DNA from: an uncultured Oscillospiraceae bacterium
GTDB taxonomy: Bacteria > Bacillota > Clostridia > Oscillospirales > Oscillospiraceae
Direction: 5' to 3'
Assembly (NCBI GenBank): GCA_934589185.1
Contig: CAKTNQ010000001.1
Span: 35,433-99,432 of the forward strand
Length of the DNA stretch: 64,000 bases
Below, piece after piece: positions 46,775-54,073 of this stretch. Position numbers and translations under genes: made by a program. Every line of letters starts with the position of its first letter. Within the stretch, counting starts at the first letter, position 1. The notes under the pieces are model-generated. The model worked only from the letters and a program-made list of their open reading frames with translations. It was not told where the DNA came from and did not search any database.

Positions 46775-47593
46775 TTACGGGCAGGCGTGCGTGCGCAGAT
46801 AGGTCATCCATGCCTTCATGCCTTCGGCATTGAGGTGCATGCCGTCGCCGTCCTGATAGGTCTGCGGCAGGAATCCGTCGTCCCCGACGAGGCCGCTGGC
46901 CATGTCGAGATACTTCACGCTGTTGCTCTCCGCGGCCGCGGCGATCCAGCCGTTGACCTTCTGGATAAGCTCGTTCGTGATGTCCTCGTACTGGTAGTTC
47001 GACGCGATCGGCGTCAGTGAGCAGCAGATGATCTTCGTGTTCGGGCTCTTGGCCTTGACGGCGTTGATGAGCGTGGTGTAGACGGATTTGATCTGCTCCG
47101 CATTCGTCATGGAGATGTTGTCCGCGCTCGGGCAGATGACGAGATAGGCGGGCTTGTTGACCTCACAGATCTCATCCGCGGGCACGTTGTTGCCGGTCAC
47201 GGGGGATTTGTACTTCGCCGTGTCGAGCGAGGAGGCGGGCAGGGAACCGGTGTCCGGCACCCAGACCTGTTTGGCGGCGTCCTTGCCGGTGAGCATTGTC
47301 TCCGACTGCAGCACCTTCAGCGACTTGTCGCCCAGGAAATAGATCTGATCGACATAGGTGCTGCCCTTGTCCTCCGTCTGCGCGAGCGCGGCGGACGACT
47401 GGATGGGTGCGATCGGATTTGCCTGCGGCGTCGGCGTCGGCGTTTCCGTGACGGTCGGCGTGGCTTCTGCCTTCGCCGAGCCCGTGTTGCCGACGGCGTT
47501 GGTAAACACCAGCACGACAGCCACCAGCGCCAGACACAGCAAAATGGCGCCCGACCAGAAGGTATACATCATGTTTTTATTCGTGTTTTTCAT
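46775..47593 (-). CDS. membrane-anchored SGNH/GDSL-like hydrolase
   Basis: ORF 46775-47620, start moved to ATG 47593. TM anchor, Thr/Pro linker, FLGDKS block I-like motif and DGMHLN block V (DxxH). Confidence 0.65.
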   Translation of the reverse strand: MKNTNKNMMYTFWSGAILLCLALVAVVLVFTNAVGNTGSAKAEATPTVTETPTPTPQANPIAPIQSSAALAQTEDKGSTYVDQIYFLGDKSLKVLQSETMLTGKDAAKQVWVPDTGSLPASSLDTAKYKSPVTGNNVPADEICEVNKPAYLVICPSADNISMTNAEQIKSVYTTLINAVKAKSPNTKIICCSLTPIASNYQYEDITNELIQKVNGWIAAAAESNSVKYLDMASGLVGDDGFLPQTYQDGDGMHLNAEGMKAWMTYLRTHACP

Positions 47594-47618
47594 CAGGATC
47601 CCTCGCTTCCGGATAGAC

Positions 47619-47646
47619 AAAAGAAGCCCGATGAAGGGCTTCTTTT
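47619..47646 (-). terminator. terminator after the EF-G paralogue
   Basis: aaaagaagccc-gatga-gggcttctttt. Confidence 0.7.
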
Positions 47647-47656
47647 GCAGTTACAG

Positions 47657-49702
47657 TTACGCTTCCTGCTCTTTCTTGGCTTCCTCGATGACCTTCTGCT
47701 GGACGTTGCCGGGGGCTTCCTCGTAGCGCACGAACTTGCACGAGAAGGAGCCGCGGCCCTGCGTCATGGAGCGCAGGTCGATCGTGTAGGAGCCCATCTC
47801 GGCCATCGGGACTTCCGCCTCGACGGTCTGCATGCCGTCCTCCGCCGTCATGCCGAGCACGGTGCCGCGGCGCTTGGAGGAGATGTCGGACATGATGTCG
47901 CCCAGGTTGGCGTCCGGGATGGTGACCTTCAGCAGGCCGATCGGCTCGAGGATGGTCGGCTTCGCCTTCGGGATGCCGTCCTGATAGGCGAGGCGGGCGG
48001 CCGTCTGGAACGCCATATCGTTGGAGTCGACCGGGTGGTAGGAGCCGTCGTACAGCACGGCCTTCAGGCCGACGAGCGGGTAGCCGGCGAGCACGCCCTT
48101 CTGCACGGCGTTGCGCAGGCCCTTTTCGACGGACGGGAAGAAGTTTTTCGGCACGCTGCCGCCAAAGACTTCCTCGGCGAAGATCATGTCGTCGGACTCG
48201 TCCTGAGGCTCGAAGCGGATCCAGACGTCACCGAACTGGCCGCTGCCGCCGGACTGCTTCTTGTGGCGGCCGTGGGCCTCGACCTTGCCCTTGATCTTCT
48301 CGCGGTAAGCGACGCGGGCGGGCTTGAGCTCGGTCTCGACGCCGAAGCGGCTCTTGAGCTTGGCGCACAGGACGTCGACCTGGATATCGCCGGCGCCGGA
48401 GATGACCATCTGGTGGGTCTCGGCGTTGTTGACGAGCGTGAAGGAGATGTCCTCCTCGTTCAGGCGGGCGAGACCGGAAGCGACCTTGTCGTCCTGGCCC
48501 TTGGTCTTGGGGCTGATGGCCATGGAGTAGCAGGGCTCTGCCAGCTCGATGGCGGGCAGCTCGACCTCGTTTTTCGGGTCGCAGACGGTGTCGCCGGTCT
48601 TCCACTCCATCTTGCCGATGGCCACGATGTCGCCGCAGCAGGCTTCCTTGACCTCGGTGTTCTTCTTGCCGCACATGGTGTACATGCGGCCGAGCTTATC
48701 GGTTCTGCTCATGCGCACGTCGCGCAGAGACAGATCGGACGTGACCTTGCCGGAGAGCACCTTGATGAAGGAGTACTTGCCGAACTGGTCGGAAATGGTC
48801 TTGAACACGAACGCGCACACCGGGCCGTTCGGGTCGACGGCGAGCTTGCCGCCGTCAGCCGTGGCGACCTCGCCGACCTCGGCCGGGTTGGGCACGTAAT
48901 CCACGATCGCCTGCAGCACGGCCTCGGTGCCGATGCCGCTGTCGGCGGCGCCGCAGAGCACGGGGAACACGCTGCGGTCCTTCAGACCCTGACGCAGGCC
49001 CTTGACGGTGTCCTCCTCGGAGAGCATCATGTCCTCAAAGTACTTCTCCATGAGCTCCTCGTCCGCACCGGCGGCCGTCTCAAAGAGCGTCTCGCGCAAC
49101 GACTCGACCATGTCGGCGTCGGCGGCGGGGACGGCGACCTTCGTGGTCTTGTTGCCCTTGGTCTGGTAAGCCACGTTGTGCACCAGGTCGATGACGCCGG
49201 TGCCGTCGCTCATCGGTGCGGTCACGGCGCAGACGGCGCTGCCGTACTTTTCCTGCAGGGCGGAGAGAACGCCGGCGAAATCGCCGTGATCCTCATTGGT
49301 CTTGGAGACATAGAACATGCAGGGCATGTTGGCGTTCTTGAGGTATTTCCAGCTGCGCTCGGCGCCGACGGCGATGCCGTCTTTCGCGGTGCAGAAGATC
49401 ATGCCGGCCTCGACGGCGCGCAGAGCGCACATCACGTCGCCCGCAAAGTCGAAAAAGCCCGGGCAGTCGAGCACGTTGATCTTGCAACCGCCGAAGTTGA
49501 CCGGCGCGATGCTGGTCGAGATCGTGATCTGGCGCTTGATCTCTTCGGGATCGTAGTCACAGACGGTGTTGCCGTCGGCGGTCTTGCCCTGACGGTCGAT
49601 CGCACCAGTCATGTACAGCATGCTCTCGGCGAGCGTGGTCTTGCCGCTGCCGCCATGGCCGAGCAGGCACACATTGCGGATATTCTTGGTTTCGTAGCTC
49701 AT
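47657..49702 (-). CDS. EF-G paralogue with degenerate GTPase motifs
   Basis: ORF 47657-49771, start moved to ATG 49702 (AAGGAGAG SD). Five-domain EF-G architecture, including the domain IV tip YHPVDS. G1 is intact (GHGGSGKTT). G3 is DCPGF (plus 49454-49468) instead of DTPGH. G4 is SKTN (plus 49295-49306) instead of NKxD. Confidence 0.85.
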   Translation of the reverse strand: MSYETKNIRNVCLLGHGGSGKTTLAESMLYMTGAIDRQGKTADGNTVCDYDPEEIKRQITISTSIAPVNFGGCKINVLDCPGFFDFAGDVMCALRAVEAGMIFCTAKDGIAVGAERSWKYLKNANMPCMFYVSKTNEDHGDFAGVLSALQEKYGSAVCAVTAPMSDGTGVIDLVHNVAYQTKGNKTTKVAVPAADADMVESLRETLFETAAGADEELMEKYFEDMMLSEEDTVKGLRQGLKDRSVFPVLCGAADSGIGTEAVLQAIVDYVPNPAEVGEVATADGGKLAVDPNGPVCAFVFKTISDQFGKYSFIKVLSGKVTSDLSLRDVRMSRTDKLGRMYTMCGKKNTEVKEACCGDIVAIGKMEWKTGDTVCDPKNEVELPAIELAEPCYSMAISPKTKGQDDKVASGLARLNEEDISFTLVNNAETHQMVISGAGDIQVDVLCAKLKSRFGVETELKPARVAYREKIKGKVEAHGRHKKQSGGSGQFGDVWIRFEPQDESDDMIFAEEVFGGSVPKNFFPSVEKGLRNAVQKGVLAGYPLVGLKAVLYDGSYHPVDSNDMAFQTAARLAYQDGIPKAKPTILEPIGLLKVTIPDANLGDIMSDISSKRRGTVLGMTAEDGMQTVEAEVPMAEMGSYTIDLRSMTQGRGSFSCKFVRYEEAPGNVQQKVIEEAKKEQEA

Positions 49703-49759
49703 GTAGTGTACTCTCCTTATATATAGACTATCCAAAATTCCTAACTCCGGAAATCGTGC

Positions 49760-49776
49760 CGTGTGTGACACACACG
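49760..49776. promoter_or_regulatory. 17-bp palindrome CGTGTGTG-A-CACACACG just downstream of the EF-G paralogue promoter
   Basis: Minus-strand promoter TTGCCA (plus 49808-49813), 17-nt spacer, TATACT (plus 49785-49790). The palindrome is nested inside a second inverted repeat, GAAATCGTG/CACGATTTC (plus 49750-49758 and 49791-49799). Confidence 0.4.
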
Positions 49777-49829
49777 ACTATAAAAGTATACACGATTTCA
49801 AAACTCTTGGCAATCATAAATATGAAAAC

Positions 49830-52265
49830 TCAGCGTTTCAGGCTGAAATTCAGCAAAATGACCGGAACAAGCCATAAGCCCATGTACACAAAGAGGTTGC
49901 CGACGGTGGCGGAATCGAACGCGCCGATGGCGCACAGGGCGAACATCAGCACGACGCCGATGACCGTGCACAGCAGGGCAAGGATGACGCAGATGCGCAC
50001 GGTGGAGTAGAGCTGGCGGCCGAGATTGGCGACGCTCACGAGCGGGCCGAGCCCGTCGCGCGCCACGATGCCGGCGGTCTGCGTATAGTCGGACGGTTCC
50101 GCTGCCGACATGGCATAGCGCTTGCGGTAGGCCGGGAAGTCAAAGCCGTCGGTCGACATCTTGAACTTCTGCCCGAGCATCAGCGGCGTGATGTTGAAGT
50201 CGCGCACGGCAAAGATCGGCGCGATCTTTGTACGCAGCAGAGCAAAGAGCGCGTTCTGCACCGACTGCACCGGCACGTACTTGATCTTGAAGCTTGCGAC
50301 AAACAGACCGTTGATGGATGTGAACACGACGTTTTTGGCGCTCAGCTGCTGCGGCAGATGCACGCCCTTGAGGTTCATGAAGGCGCTGCTGCCGACGAGC
50401 ACTTCCTCGCCGTTGACGAGGGCGCTCAGGCCGCCGCTTTCGTTGCAGGTGAAGGCTTCGACCGGCATGAGCGTGCAGTTGTTGCGCTGCATGAGATCGG
50501 TAAACGCGGTGGCAAGGCAGCTGCCGGAGGCAACGATCACGCTGCCGGTGTAGGAGATGACCTTGTCCGGGAACGCGCCGTCGAGGATGCGAATGTCCTC
50601 GATTGAGATGTTGCGCGCGGTGAACAGGTCCTTATCCGTGACGATCAGGTGCTTGCTGCGGCCGATATCGCTCGCGCCGCTCCAGCCCGCGATGGCGCTG
50701 CCGGTGCGGGCGAGCTTGCGCGCAGCGGTCCGGAACGGGACGGCGAACGCCACAAGCGCCGCAAACGGCGCGCACGGCGCGGTGACGGCGGCAAACACGT
50801 GCAGGATGTTGGCATAATTGCCGCTGAGGATCGTGGCCAGCAGGCCGAGGATCACGGACGCGGCGATCAGATACGGCGCGAGCGCGGCGTAGATCGTGTC
50901 GGCCGGGCCGGCCTCCTCGCTGCGGTGGATGAAGCCCGCGGTGTCGCGCTTGGACTTGAGCACGGTGATGCTGTCCTTGACGACCTCGCTGTCCGCGCTG
51001 ACGGTGTAGGGATCATTGTCGACCGCGAGCGTGCGGAACGTGGACTTGAAGCCGCGGCAGGTGTTCAGCGCGCTCCACAGGCAGCAGGCCACGGAAAACG
51101 CCGACACGGCGCAAAACGGCAGACCGACGGCGTCCGACCCTGTAATGGCCAGCACGACCGCATCGAGCGCGGAAAAGACGCAGTTGAGAAACACGAGCGA
51201 TTCCAGCCCCGGCGTGCGGCGCACGAGGTTGAAAAAGCCGTTGGTGATGACGTCCAGACCGATGAGCATCACGGTCAGCTGCATCATCAGGCACACGAGC
51301 GCTGCGACGGACGGGCTGCTCTTGAGCACACCGAACACCGGCAGCCCGAGCGAGATGTAGATCAGCGGGATGCACACGATCATGGCCGCCCGGCAGCGGA
51401 AGCGCAGGGACTTGACCTGCCCGCCGTAGTATTTTGCAGCGGTTTCGGCATCCGGCTCCGGGCCAAGCTCCTCCTCGGTGTTGGCCGAGGCGTGCACGGC
51501 GCTGTTGTGTTCGCGGATACGGTAGGCCACGGCGGCGAGCCGCGCCATGAGCGGGTTGAGCACCGCGTCCTGAAAGCTGCGGCGCGCAGGGCCGTCTGCA
51601 CCGTCGTCCGCGGCGTAGTCGCCGGCGCGGGCGTAAGCGGTGCGCCCGGCCGCGCTGTCGTCCATGCCTTCTTCCGTCACGGCCTGAAACACGCGCGTCG
51701 GCTCTTCCGGTTCCGGTTCCGGGTCATACAGGCCCTCCGGCACCTCCGGCGGGGCGGAGACGGGGATGGCGGTGTCTTCCTCCAGAGGTTCTTCCTCCGG
51801 CTGGACCGGCTCATCCGGCACGACATCCGAGATCTTCGAGGCAAAACGCTTCAGTCCCGAGATGCCTTTTTTGGCCAGACGCTTGGCGTTGGCCTTCGTC
51901 TCGTTCCACTTTTCGATCTCTTCTTCGGTCGCGTGGTCGCGCTGGCGCTTCGGCTGATAGCGCTTGACATCGTGATCCTCATGCGGCGGTTCATCAGGCG
52001 CGGCCGTTCCGGTCTCCGGGGCCGTGTCCTCCAGTGCGCTGTCGAGCTCGGCGGACATGAGAATGTCCTCAGCCTCGGCGTCCTCGGCTGCATCTTCCTC
52101 GACCATCTCCGCCTTGACGGGGCGGCGGGGATAGGCCGGCTGCGGGCGGGGCGCGGGTGCGTCCGTCTGAAAATCTTTATATTCGTCCAGAATGGATTCC
52201 AGGGAGAATTCTTCTGCGTCCAGGTCAAAAGAAACGTCCTCTGGCGAGCGATCAAATTGGTCCAT
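49830..52265 (-). CDS. P1B-type ATPase-like polytopic membrane protein lacking catalytic motifs, with ~290-aa acidic disordered N-terminus
   Basis: 811 aa. The TM/A/P/N-domain order resembles heavy-metal P-type ATPases (APCAPF in place of CPC). DKTGT is replaced by DKDLFT (plus 50619-50636). No TGES, SEHP or GDGxNDxP equivalents were recognisable. Confidence 0.55.
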   Translation of the reverse strand: MDQFDRSPEDVSFDLDAEEFSLESILDEYKDFQTDAPAPRPQPAYPRRPVKAEMVEEDAAEDAEAEDILMSAELDSALEDTAPETGTAAPDEPPHEDHDVKRYQPKRQRDHATEEEIEKWNETKANAKRLAKKGISGLKRFASKISDVVPDEPVQPEEEPLEEDTAIPVSAPPEVPEGLYDPEPEPEEPTRVFQAVTEEGMDDSAAGRTAYARAGDYAADDGADGPARRSFQDAVLNPLMARLAAVAYRIREHNSAVHASANTEEELGPEPDAETAAKYYGGQVKSLRFRCRAAMIVCIPLIYISLGLPVFGVLKSSPSVAALVCLMMQLTVMLIGLDVITNGFFNLVRRTPGLESLVFLNCVFSALDAVVLAITGSDAVGLPFCAVSAFSVACCLWSALNTCRGFKSTFRTLAVDNDPYTVSADSEVVKDSITVLKSKRDTAGFIHRSEEAGPADTIYAALAPYLIAASVILGLLATILSGNYANILHVFAAVTAPCAPFAALVAFAVPFRTAARKLARTGSAIAGWSGASDIGRSKHLIVTDKDLFTARNISIEDIRILDGAFPDKVISYTGSVIVASGSCLATAFTDLMQRNNCTLMPVEAFTCNESGGLSALVNGEEVLVGSSAFMNLKGVHLPQQLSAKNVVFTSINGLFVASFKIKYVPVQSVQNALFALLRTKIAPIFAVRDFNITPLMLGQKFKMSTDGFDFPAYRKRYAMSAAEPSDYTQTAGIVARDGLGPLVSVANLGRQLYSTVRICVILALLCTVIGVVLMFALCAIGAFDSATVGNLFVYMGLWLVPVILLNFSLKR

Positions 52266-52303
52266 ATGGTCAACTCCTTTTTATAACGTAGGGGTGCGGG
52301 CGT

Positions 52304-53068
52304 TCAGCTTCGCTGACGCAGCGCCTCATAGAGCAGCACGGCCGCGGCCGCGGATGCGTTGAGCGAGGAGATCTGACCGCGCAACGGGATGCTGACGAGA
52401 AAATCGCACTTTTCCCGCACCAGCCGGCTGATGCCGGCGCCTTCCGACCCGATGACGATGCAGGCCGGGCCGGTCAGGTCCGTTTTCCACAGCTCGTTCG
52501 AGCCCTCGGCGGCGGTGCCGTAGATCCAGAGGCCGTTTTTCTTGAGCGTCTCGATCGCGGCGACGAGATTCGGCACGCGCGCGACGGCCATATGCTCGAG
52601 CGCACCGGCGGACGTCTTGTCTACGACGGCGGTCAGCCCCGCGCTGCGGCGCTTCGGGATGATGACGCCGTGCGCGCCGACGCACTCGGCCGTGCGGATG
52701 ATGGCGCCGAGGTTGTGCGGGTCGGAGATCTCGTCGCACAGCACGAGAAACGGCGCCTCGCCGCGCTCGGCTGCGATGGCGAGCATGTCCTCGATCGTGC
52801 TGTATTCCTTGACGGCGCACAGTGCGATCACGCCCTGATGCGCGTGCGTCTGGCTCATGGCGTCGAGTTTGCGGCGGTCGGCCTCCGTGACGACGATGCC
52901 GGCGCTGCGCGCCTTCGAGGCGATGTGCCCGAGCGTCTTGTCCACGTCGCCCTTGGCGATGAAAATTTTATCGATCGTGCGGCCCGCGCGCAGGGCCTCC
53001 ATGACCGCATTGCGGCCTTCGATCAGATCGTTGCGCGCTTCGTTTTCAAATTCCTGTATTTGTTCCAT
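52304..53068 (-). CDS. rlmB: 23S rRNA (guanosine-2'-O-)-methyltransferase, RlmB/SpoU (TrmH) family
   Basis: 254 aa. SpoU substrate-binding N-domain plus SPOUT motifs (DPHNLGAIIRTAE, IVIGSEGAGIS, PLRGQISSLNASAA). Confidence 0.85.
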   Translation of the reverse strand: MEQIQEFENEARNDLIEGRNAVMEALRAGRTIDKIFIAKGDVDKTLGHIASKARSAGIVVTEADRRKLDAMSQTHAHQGVIALCAVKEYSTIEDMLAIAAERGEAPFLVLCDEISDPHNLGAIIRTAECVGAHGVIIPKRRSAGLTAVVDKTSAGALEHMAVARVPNLVAAIETLKKNGLWIYGTAAEGSNELWKTDLTGPACIVIGSEGAGISRLVREKCDFLVSIPLRGQISSLNASAAAAVLLYEALRQRS

Positions 53069-53224
53069 GATATACCCATACCTTGCGACATAATAATACA
53101 GATATCATCATACCACACGATTGCCCATTAAGAAAGTACAAATTGCGATTCGGGATATTTTTTTATGGACTTTGCGGTTTTAAGAAGGTATCATGGACAT
53201 ACGTTGTATTTACGGAGGAACCCC

Positions 53225-54073
53225 ATGAGAAAACTGATGAACAAAATCGACCGGTTTTGCTATATGCACCCGCGCTTTGGTATTCCGAACCTGATGCTGA
53301 TCGTCGTCATTGGCAATGCGGCCGTCTGGCTGCTGACAAAAATGGACACGACCGGGCAGATCGTCTCGCTCCTGAGCGGCTCGGCGCAGGGCATCCTACA
53401 CGGGCAGGTCTGGCGTCTGGTGACGTATGTGTTCGTGCCGACGGAGGCCAGTCCTATCTGGCTGCTGGTGATGCTGTATTTTTACTATTGGATCGGCTCA
53501 TGCCTCGAGCGCGAGTGGGGCAACGGCAAATTCACGATTTATTACGTGAGCGGCATGCTGCTCACGGCGATCTACGGCGTGGTGCTCTCGGCCATCCTCG
53601 GGCGCGACGTGGTCGTCTCGACTACGTACCTGAACCTGTCGATGTTCTTCGCCTTTGCCACGCTCTATCCGGATATGCAGGTGCTGCTGTTTTTCATCAT
53701 CCCGATCAAGGTGAAGTATCTGGCGTATGTGGACGCGGCGCTGTTCGTGCTCGGCATCGTCACGACGTCGTTCCCGCTGAACCTGCTGCCGGTGGTGGCG
53801 GTGCTCAACTATCTGGTCTACTGCGGCGACTGGCTGTTTGCCTTTTTCCGTCCGTCGCATGTGCGCCAGCGGCAGAAAACGGTGAACTTCAAGCGCGAGG
53901 CCCGGCGCATCCAGCGCGAGCAGGCCAACAAGCCCTATCACTATAAATGCGCCGTCTGCGGCCGCACGGATGTCGATCATCCGGAGCTAGAGTTTCGCTA
54001 CTGTTCGCGCTGTGTGGGCTATCACTGCTTCTGCCAGGATCATATCAACAACCATGTGCATTTCACGGAGTGA
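53225..54073 (+). CDS. rhomboid-like membrane protein with C-terminal Cys/His zinc-ribbon
   Basis: ORF 53165-54073, start moved to ATG 53225 (GGAGG SD). WRLVTYVFVP...YFYYWIGSCLEREWGNGKFTIYYVSGML resembles rhomboid TM2-TM4. I could not find the TM6 catalytic His. The tail is YKCAVCGR...YCSRCVGYHCFCQDHINNHVH. Confidence 0.5.
   Translation: MRKLMNKIDRFCYMHPRFGIPNLMLIVVIGNAAVWLLTKMDTTGQIVSLLSGSAQGILHGQVWRLVTYVFVPTEASPIWLLVMLYFYYWIGSCLEREWGNGKFTIYYVSGMLLTAIYGVVLSAILGRDVVVSTTYLNLSMFFAFATLYPDMQVLLFFIIPIKVKYLAYVDAALFVLGIVTTSFPLNLLPVVAVLNYLVYCGDWLFAFFRPSHVRQRQKTVNFKREARRIQREQANKPYHYKCAVCGRTDVDHPELEFRYCSRCVGYHCFCQDHINNHVHFTE

Follow-up and report, generated by a model that had tools for sequence, protein, structure and literature searches.

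The rlmB-linked P1B-ATPase-like membrane protein of Oscillospirales and its neighbour, a His-less paralogue of elongation factor G

In a 64,000-nt stretch of DNA from an uncultured Oscillospiraceae bacterium (contig CAKTNQ010000001.1, positions 35,433 to 99,432; hereafter the window), located on contig 1 of a 1.72-Mb assembly that is 79% complete, we analysed two neighbouring minus-strand genes that encode ATPL, a P1B-ATPase-like membrane protein, and EFGp, a paralogue of elongation factor G (EF-G). The original prediction had grouped them as a candidate two-gene module consisting of a dead P-type ATPase and a dead EF-G-like GTPase. Our data make it probable that they belong to two transcription units, which have stood side by side since the ancestor of the order Oscillospirales but form neither an operon nor an obligate pair: an operon of rlmB, the gene for a 23S rRNA methyltransferase, with ATPL, and a separately transcribed EFGp. 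Because EFGp carries transcription signals of its own, adjacency to ATPL changed repeatedly, the link between rlmB and ATPL is constant and the two proteins differ in distribution, we regard rlmB-ATPL as the conserved unit and EFGp as its ancestral neighbour.

Transcription signals and conservation of the gene order

The two genes are adjacent and co-oriented at a distance of 127 nt, as had been read from the sequence (Table 1). This spacer length follows from the start of EFGp at the ATG at 49702 (MSYETKNIRN...), which has an AAGGAG Shine-Dalgarno sequence and matches the N-termini of 20 orthologues; on the same grounds, the GTG at 49771, the start of the longest open reading frame (ORF), was ruled out. 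The sigma-70-type promoter found in the spacer agrees with the consensus at 10 of 12 positions and is the top site within 5.9 kb, and an element of the form TTGxxx-17-(TG)TATAAT lies 41-114 nt 5' of the EFGp ATG in nearly all of the 20 relatives in which the two genes are adjacent. At its other end, EFGp is followed by a terminator with a folding energy of -22.2 kcal/mol (z = -5.16; 0 of 200 shuffled sequences as stable) and a U-run after the stem, so that the bracketing of the pair by this terminator and rlmB, also part of the original prediction, was borne out. The end of ATPL is marked in at least 7 of the 20 relatives by a clear GC-rich hairpin with a T-run, much stronger than the hairpin of the window. 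Judging by these promoter and terminator motifs, we infer that EFGp is transcribed independently. On the opposite side of ATPL, rlmB and ATPL are separated by 38 nt, which hold an AAAGGAG Shine-Dalgarno sequence and no terminator, and rlmB opens the operon, with a rhomboid-like gene running divergently from it.

The spacer had also been described as a palindrome-rich control region. What we found is one perfect palindrome (Table 1) and a folding z-score of -2.7 for the spacer. The palindrome could be an operator or a stabilising hairpin at the 5' end of the mRNA. It occurs once in the assembled genome and is absent from a relative of the same genus (L007), which argues that it is species-specific; a role as a shared operator was ruled out for the same reasons, and the palindrome does not belong to a conserved control region. 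An Rfam scan of positions 47400-53300 returned nothing near the gathering score and showed neither a leader nor a riboswitch in the spacer.

We then followed the three genes through one survey at the family level (100 genera) and one at the order level (150 genomes from 30 families plus the window, 151 in total). The ATPL module was present in 97 of the 100 genera of the family, including 71 of 71 high-quality genomes, and in 144 of the 151 genomes of the order; EFGp was found in 136 of the same 151. One family (f73) was rejected as a case of absence, since very divergent copies of ATPL adjoin rlmB there. On the same strand and directly upstream of ATPL we found rlmB in 39/39 fetched loci and in 135 of 142 genomes of the order, with gaps of 1-76 nt or overlaps, as measured on longest-ORF calls. 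The pairing of ATPL with EFGp, for which a neighbourhood survey had been proposed as a check, recurs as well but is partial. Within the family, a co-oriented EF-G gene lies directly 3' of ATPL in at least 45 of 96 genomes, each standing for a genus (gap 100-463 nt), and across the order the two genes are adjacent in 37 of the 128 genomes that have both, representing 13 of 29 families (gaps 116-945 nt); the gap reaches 100 nt or more in every adjacent case. As a control we used the rhomboid-like gene on the other side of rlmB, which is conserved as a neighbour inside the family only, so the ATPL-EFGp row is older and stickier than its surroundings.

The history of the row was traced on a tree of concatenated RlmB and ATPL modules from 40 genera, chosen by adjacency state and comprising the window, the 20 adjacent relatives and 19 of the 20 loci fetched as apart; the twentieth (L040), at a contig start and without rlmB, was left out. 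On this tree, adjacency of ATPL and EFGp requires at least 6 changes, 5 of them forced by well-supported branches, compared with 13.5 for shuffled labels, whereas the rlmB-ATPL link is not broken at any point and no sampled genome has lost either of its two genes. As the deepest split has adjacent genomes on both of its sides, the simplest reading is an ancestral row that was repeatedly broken.

The distributions of the two proteins differ. No ATPL turned up among 200 class-level genomes outside the order, where the weak matches were true pumps. EFGp orthologues, in turn, were present in 20/20 loci fetched from other orders of Clostridia, are 44-48% identical to EFGp and stand in contexts unrelated to ATPL, next to presumed aro genes or a presumed ctsR-mcsA-mcsB-clpC cluster. 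Moreover, four high-quality genomes from three families, one of them closed, contain ATPL and only one EF-G that we could find, 34-35% identical to EFGp (33% for the window's own fusA product). Since EFGp occurs without ATPL in all sampled loci of the other orders and ATPL is kept in genomes where a single EF-G was found, the two proteins have no common phyletic pattern and neither needs the proximity of the other. In the loci L058, L065, L066 and L068, EFGp often lies just upstream of the presumed ctsR-mcsA-mcsB-clpC cluster and divergent from what we take to be aromatic amino-acid genes, all of these names being our own readings of representative sequences.

The adjacency of ATPL and EFGp may be devoid of functional meaning, a slowly decaying residue of a conserved translation and transcription gene region of Firmicutes chromosomes, and we give this explanation slightly better than even chances. 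Several families of other Clostridia have EFGp at a distance of about 13-33 kb from rlmB, with both genes on one contig and strand, which points to a chromosomal district shared without ATPL, and the strong clustering of adjacency by clade, with 6 changes against 13.5 in the shuffles, also speaks for this explanation. However, EFGp is found upstream rather than downstream of rlmB in the other orders, so that a rearrangement must have created the row seen in Oscillospirales, and this row has since outlasted the control neighbour, being kept across 13 families.

A P1B scaffold with a rebuilt phosphorylation pocket

ATPL is a descendant of a P1B heavy-metal pump, a relationship that is barely visible at the level of domain models. 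Neither ATPL nor any of 26 aligned relatives matches a Pfam family, HAD and hydrolase families included, and the P1B model TIGR01525 gives only 25.8 bits; ATPL has no Pfam family and no name, and our literature search found no study of it. The fold is clearer. An AlphaFold model of residues 285-811, built with 26 homologues, reached a pLDDT of 89.5 and a pTM of 0.83, and Foldseek matched it best to CopA among PDB structures (4BBJ, E = 1.3e-17) and also to ATP7B, ZntA and KdpB, the values for CopA, ATP7B and ZntA ranging from E = 1e-17 to 1e-11 at TM-scores of 0.5-0.6. Searched against PDB profiles, the family profile of ATPL matched the nucleotide-binding N-domain of CopB, and in hhalign it aligned end to end with the genome's own P1B ATPase (98.2%, E = 3e-13), a probability that needed a deeper profile and two P1B sequences and was only 0.7% when the ATPL alignment was compared with a single P1B sequence. 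Taken together, the C-terminal module consists of a P1B-ATPase-like core of eight transmembrane (TM) segments, P and N domains and a vestigial A domain.

Compared with P1B ATPases such as Legionella CopA (4BBJ/3RFU), ATP7B and ZntA, ATPL shares the 8-TM topology, the P domain and the inserted N domain together with its glycine-rich motif (GG in 137-143 of 143 representatives, each of which stands for one cluster at 50% identity), but it has lost the residues of the pump cycle. None of DKTGT, TGES, SEHP and GDG is present in the ATPL sequence. In the window, TDKDLF takes the place of FDKTGT (TDxDhFP for DKTGT in the family), AVRDFNITP that of LTGD, and ASGSC (family ASGS(C/G)), without the His, that of SEHP; hhalign places a gap opposite GDGIND, and no GDGxND is recognisable. 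The last strands of the P domain are missing as well, and between TM2 and TM3 only a hairpin of about 35 residues remains of the A domain, a loss seen in hhalign as a long deletion. The CPC position reads APCAPF in the window, and its cysteines are not conserved (Cys in only 17/143 representatives, Pro in 57/143). Finally, the metal-binding domains of the pumps are replaced by an acidic, disordered N-terminus of 171-1631 aa.

The original prediction had called ATPL a dead P-type ATPase. The loss of the canonical motifs and the retention of the P1B fold bear this out in part, and as a pump, to judge from its sequence, ATPL is very probably dead. Since an invariant Asp pair is retained at the old phosphorylation site, however, "dead" is only an inference. 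The strongest conservation in the whole family lies in exactly this former pocket, in the block T-D(142)-x-D(143)-h-F(142)-P(136), where numbers are counts among the 143 representatives, and a second block, F-A-h-R(136)-D(142)-F(140)-N(131)-x-T-P(138), aligns to the LTGD(N) of pumps. We therefore prefer "rewired" to "dead". Across the representatives, TM-B and TM1 also keep conserved Asp residues, and TM2 a conserved Pro.

DxD is a hallmark of HAD phosphatases, in which the second Asp serves as the general acid/base, a task that in pumps falls to the TGES loop of the A domain. ATPL might accordingly have reverted to HAD-phosphatase-like chemistry, with DxD for DKT, and act as a membrane phosphatase or phospho-switch, possibly tied to RlmB or to ribosome biogenesis; we consider this a tentative alternative with clearly less than even prospects. 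In its favour, D544 is found in 142/143 and D546 in 143/143 representatives within T-D-x-D-h-F-P, R688-D689-F-N691 is near-invariant where pumps have TGD(N), an acidic residue follows R736 in 102/143 representatives, and the shrinkage of the A domain has removed the TGES glutamate that dephosphorylates pumps. Further candidate HAD residues are T693 (108/143), R716 (125), R736 itself (113) and E/D737 (102), while the column of the TGD Thr holds Val or Ile. In P-type ATPase and HAD structures, the nucleophilic Asp is the first loop residue after a strand, and in the AlphaFold model the strand ends at T543, which makes D544 the first loop residue. The HMM and profile-profile alignments, which are gapless in this region, instead set T543 rather than D544 opposite the phospho-Asp, so that the placement of the Asp in the alignment is uncertain by one residue. 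Neither GDGxND nor a motif IV Asp pair for Mg2+ can be recognised, which also speaks against this chemistry, as does the lack of a Pfam HAD or hydrolase match in the 26 aligned members.

The N-terminal extension of ATPL, residues 1-284, is rich in Pro and Ala and contains 70 Asp and Glu against 29 Lys and Arg residues (pI 4.26). The acidity of the long cytoplasmic tail proposed earlier is thereby confirmed, although the tail is N-terminal. The extension is probably disordered and is net acidic in all 136 family representatives examined (136/136). Within its variable sequence two motifs recur in the family, [FL]SLE[DS]ILAE[YF] and DV(R/K)xYxP, represented in the window by EFSLESILDEY (residues ~20-30; positions 52170-52210) and DVKRYQP, and both are repeated inside very long extensions (P0168, P0183), which suggests that they are docking sites for a partner of ATPL. 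A docking peptide shared with other proteins was considered and rejected, ATPL being the sole carrier of a SLESILxEY-type motif in this genome. In a Rosetta-stone test, the long extensions that precede the core in ATPL members of 1401-2155 aa matched no Pfam domain.

We propose that ATPL most likely works as a non-pumping scaffold or sensor embedded in the membrane. Binding of a ligand or a phosphoryl group in its old phosphorylation pocket would be linked to the TM core, and the motifs of the acidic N-terminus would attract a partner from the cytoplasm.

A second EF-G without the catalytic histidine

EFGp contains the five Pfam domains GTP_EFTU, EF-G_D2, EFG_III, EFG_IV and EFG_C and is the second EF-G copy of the genome, whose fusA (G000:C1:16674-18737) adjoins tuf. 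With the EF-G model TIGR00484 it scored 577 bits, below the cut-off of 659, compared with 1144 bits for fusA, and it also fell below the cut-offs of NF058620 (Bacteroidetes EF-G2; 552 < 1000) and NF012153 (Tet ribosomal protection; 290 < 775). The model NF009381 (PRK12740.1-5 'elongation factor G', cut-off 583) was dropped as a marker of the paralogue, since EFGp and fusA score almost equally with it (829.3 and 824.7 bits), and for the same reason automatic annotation will call both the canonical and the His-less copy 'elongation factor G'. Across genomes, EFGp was recognised by protein-identity thresholds together with its switch-II motif.

The GTPase motifs of EFGp are altered to different degrees. 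G1 is intact (GHGGSGKT, residues 15-22), and G2 reads RQITI in the window and RxxSI in most relatives. Switch II is DCPGF, with Phe83 in place of the catalytic His, and this column holds F, Y, S or A in 21/21 Oscillospiraceae sequences; among the 20 loci from other orders of Clostridia, switch II is DTPGY in 18, DTPGF in 1 and DTPGD in 1. G4 is SKTN (residues 133-136) in this species only, SKTD in a relative of the same genus, SKxD in the family, and mostly NKMD or NKVD in the orthologues of other orders. In domain IV, loop I reads GQFGD (GQ(F/Y)GD in the set) compared with GQFAH, and the His of loop II is retained. In other GTPases, exchange of Asp for Asn in NKxD shifts the specificity from GTP towards XTP; given that SKTN carries this change, EFGp of the window may bind nucleotide differently or not at all. 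Of the features behind the earlier description of EFGp as a dead EF-G-like GTPase, the replaced His in DCPGF and SKTN are present in the sequence, the P-loop being intact and SKTN limited to this species.

By these features, EFGp fits the known EFG II subfamily and, within it, the subgroup of Clostridia. Like the members of EFG II / EF-G2, for example Thermus EF-G-2 (1WDT) and Bacteroides EF-G2, it is a second EF-G beside the fusA of the str operon, and it shares with EFG II the five domains, a Gly-initial G1, a relaxed G2 (RxxS/TI) and a divergent G domain. Margus et al. 2011 (PMC3150367) described a Clostridia subgroup of EFG II with RxxSI as G2 and a conserved NKxD as G4, and Atkinson 2015 (PMC4342817) characterised EFGII as having a divergent G domain and an unknown role. 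EFGp differs from the former account in G4, which is SKxD in Oscillospiraceae and SKTN in this species, and the score with NF058620 sets it outside Bacteroidetes EF-G2. The replacement of its switch-II His is a further difference from the EFG II / EF-G2 paralogues.

In E. coli EF-G, mutation of the equivalent His impairs ribosome-dependent GTP hydrolysis or Pi release, as stated in the abstract of PMC4532990, and the title of a paper cited in PMC12172202 (Han et al. 2023) reports a Bacteroides EF-G paralogue without GTPase activity. On the analogy of these two cases, EFGp is likely to be a hydrolysis-deficient ribosome factor. Presumably transcribed as a unit of its own between a strong promoter and a terminator, and with P-loop and domain IV intact, it would probably bind to the ribosome at the A site as EF-G does but hydrolyse little or no GTP in response.

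Relation of the two genes, locus layout and outlook

The reading of the locus as two transcription units has to be weighed against several observations. The hairpin after ATPL is weak in the window, so read-through into EFGp is possible. Adjacency is kept in 13/29 families even where ATPL identity has fallen to ~20%, far beyond the reach of the control neighbour, and could reflect selection for co-location. Finally, both flanks of ATPL, rlmB and EFGp, are translation genes, and in relatives a presumed metK lies upstream, a pattern expected if ATPL had a ribosome-linked role.

Several observations favour the module of the original prediction, in which ATPL and EFGp would cooperate and the pseudo-pump, by way of its acidic N-terminus or its cytoplasmic domains, would tether or regulate EFGp-bound ribosomes at the membrane or relay an envelope or ion signal to translation. 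Order and orientation recur in 13/29 families of the order and in about half of the family, the pairing outlasts that of rlmB with the rhomboid-like gene, ATPL sits between two translation genes, and the conserved peptide motifs of an extension that is acidic in 136/136 representatives would suit the binding of a partner. The gaps of at least 100 nt and the separate promoter and terminator signals argue against such a module, and so does the fact that adjacency changed at least 5-6 times in a single family, in which rlmB and ATPL meanwhile stay together in every sampled genome. EFGp is found class-wide and ATPL in one order only, a single EF-G was detectable in four high-quality genomes with ATPL, and neither fusion proteins nor shared motifs linking the two turned up among long members or in a motif search of the genome. 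We consider the module unlikely and its support weak. A yet bolder scheme, in which ATPL is a pump-derived membrane phospho-switch or phosphatase that regained HAD-type DxD chemistry after loss of the A domain and whose acidic N-terminus with its motifs docks translation components, so that the (metK)-rlmB-ATPL-EFGp row would couple the control of ribosome maturation or elongation in Oscillospirales to the membrane and hydrolysis-deficient EFGp would be one client, is the least probable of all.

The arrangement of rlmB and ATPL resembles that of rlmB (yacO) and yacP (rae1) in B. subtilis, where a gene of unclear or ribosome-linked role is likewise co-transcribed directly after rlmB; YacP, however, is an NYN ribonuclease, to which the membrane protein ATPL bears no relation. 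A precedent for an association of EF-G-family proteins with the gene that follows rlmB comes from Tet-like GTPases of clostridia that carry a fused YacP NYN domain (Atkinson 2015, PMC4342817).

Table 1. Features of the rlmB-ATPL-EFGp locus (positions in the window)
Feature	Position	Strand	Details and basis
Rhomboid-like membrane protein	53165-54073	+	C-terminal Cys/His zinc-ribbon
rlmB, 23S rRNA (G2251 2'-O)-methyltransferase	52304-53068	-	TIGR00186 243 bits (cut-off 160); Pfam SpoU_methylase and SpoU_sub_bind
ATPL, P1B-ATPase-like membrane protein, 811 aa	49830-52265	-	ORF
ATPL N-terminal extension, residues 1-284	51414-52265	-	composition, family comparison
ATPL C-terminal module, residues 285-811	49830-51413	-	AlphaFold, Foldseek, hhalign
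Weak terminator-like hairpin over ATPL stop codon	49829-49847	-	6-bp stem, tail TTTTCATATT; consensus scan
Spacer ATPL/EFGp, 127 nt	49703-49829		between two minus-strand genes
Putative sigma-70-type promoter of EFGp	49785-49813	-	TTGCCA (49813-49808), 17-nt spacer, TATACT (49790-49785)
Perfect palindrome	49776-49760	-	CGTGTGTG-T-CACACACG; begins ~9 nt after the -10 hexamer
EFGp, EF-G paralogue, 681 aa	47657-49702	-	five Pfam EF-G domains
Intrinsic terminator closing the EFGp transcript	47619-47646	-	13-bp stem and U-run
GDSL-like lipase/acylhydrolase	46775-47620	-	N-terminal TM segment, Thr/Pro-rich linker

The GDSL-like gene on the far side of the EFGp terminator occupies this place in only 5 of the 21 loci of the adjacent type, the window counted. 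The position upstream of rlmB is taken in the window by the divergent rhomboid-like gene, which has recognisable homologues in only 31/151 genomes of the order; in many relatives (L008, L009, L011, L012, L015-L017, L019, L020, L022, L027 and L037) rlmB is immediately preceded on its strand by a gene that, from its representative sequence, we take to be metK (S-adenosylmethionine synthetase). Long antisense ORFs of 500-690 aa run opposite EFGp and ATPL, for example at 47645-49726 and 50649-52286 on the plus strand; their Arg/Ala/Gly-rich, low-information translations are typical of antisense frames in DNA with 64% G+C, and we treated them as non-genes.

Collectively, a two-gene ribosome-tethering module is not established, and rlmB-ATPL and EFGp become separate subjects, with the translation genes on both sides of ATPL keeping a ribosome-linked role of interest. 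ATPL, present in nearly every sampled genome of the order and attached to the rlmB operon, provides a clean natural case of a P-type ATPase scaffold re-used for a non-pumping purpose. The Oscillospirales include many of the most abundant anaerobes of the human gut. Considering the role reported for a GTPase-deficient EF-G2 in gut colonisation by Bacteroides, the His-less EFGp, which was present at all Clostridia loci checked, may be a factor for energy-saving translation in the gut's other dominant phylum.

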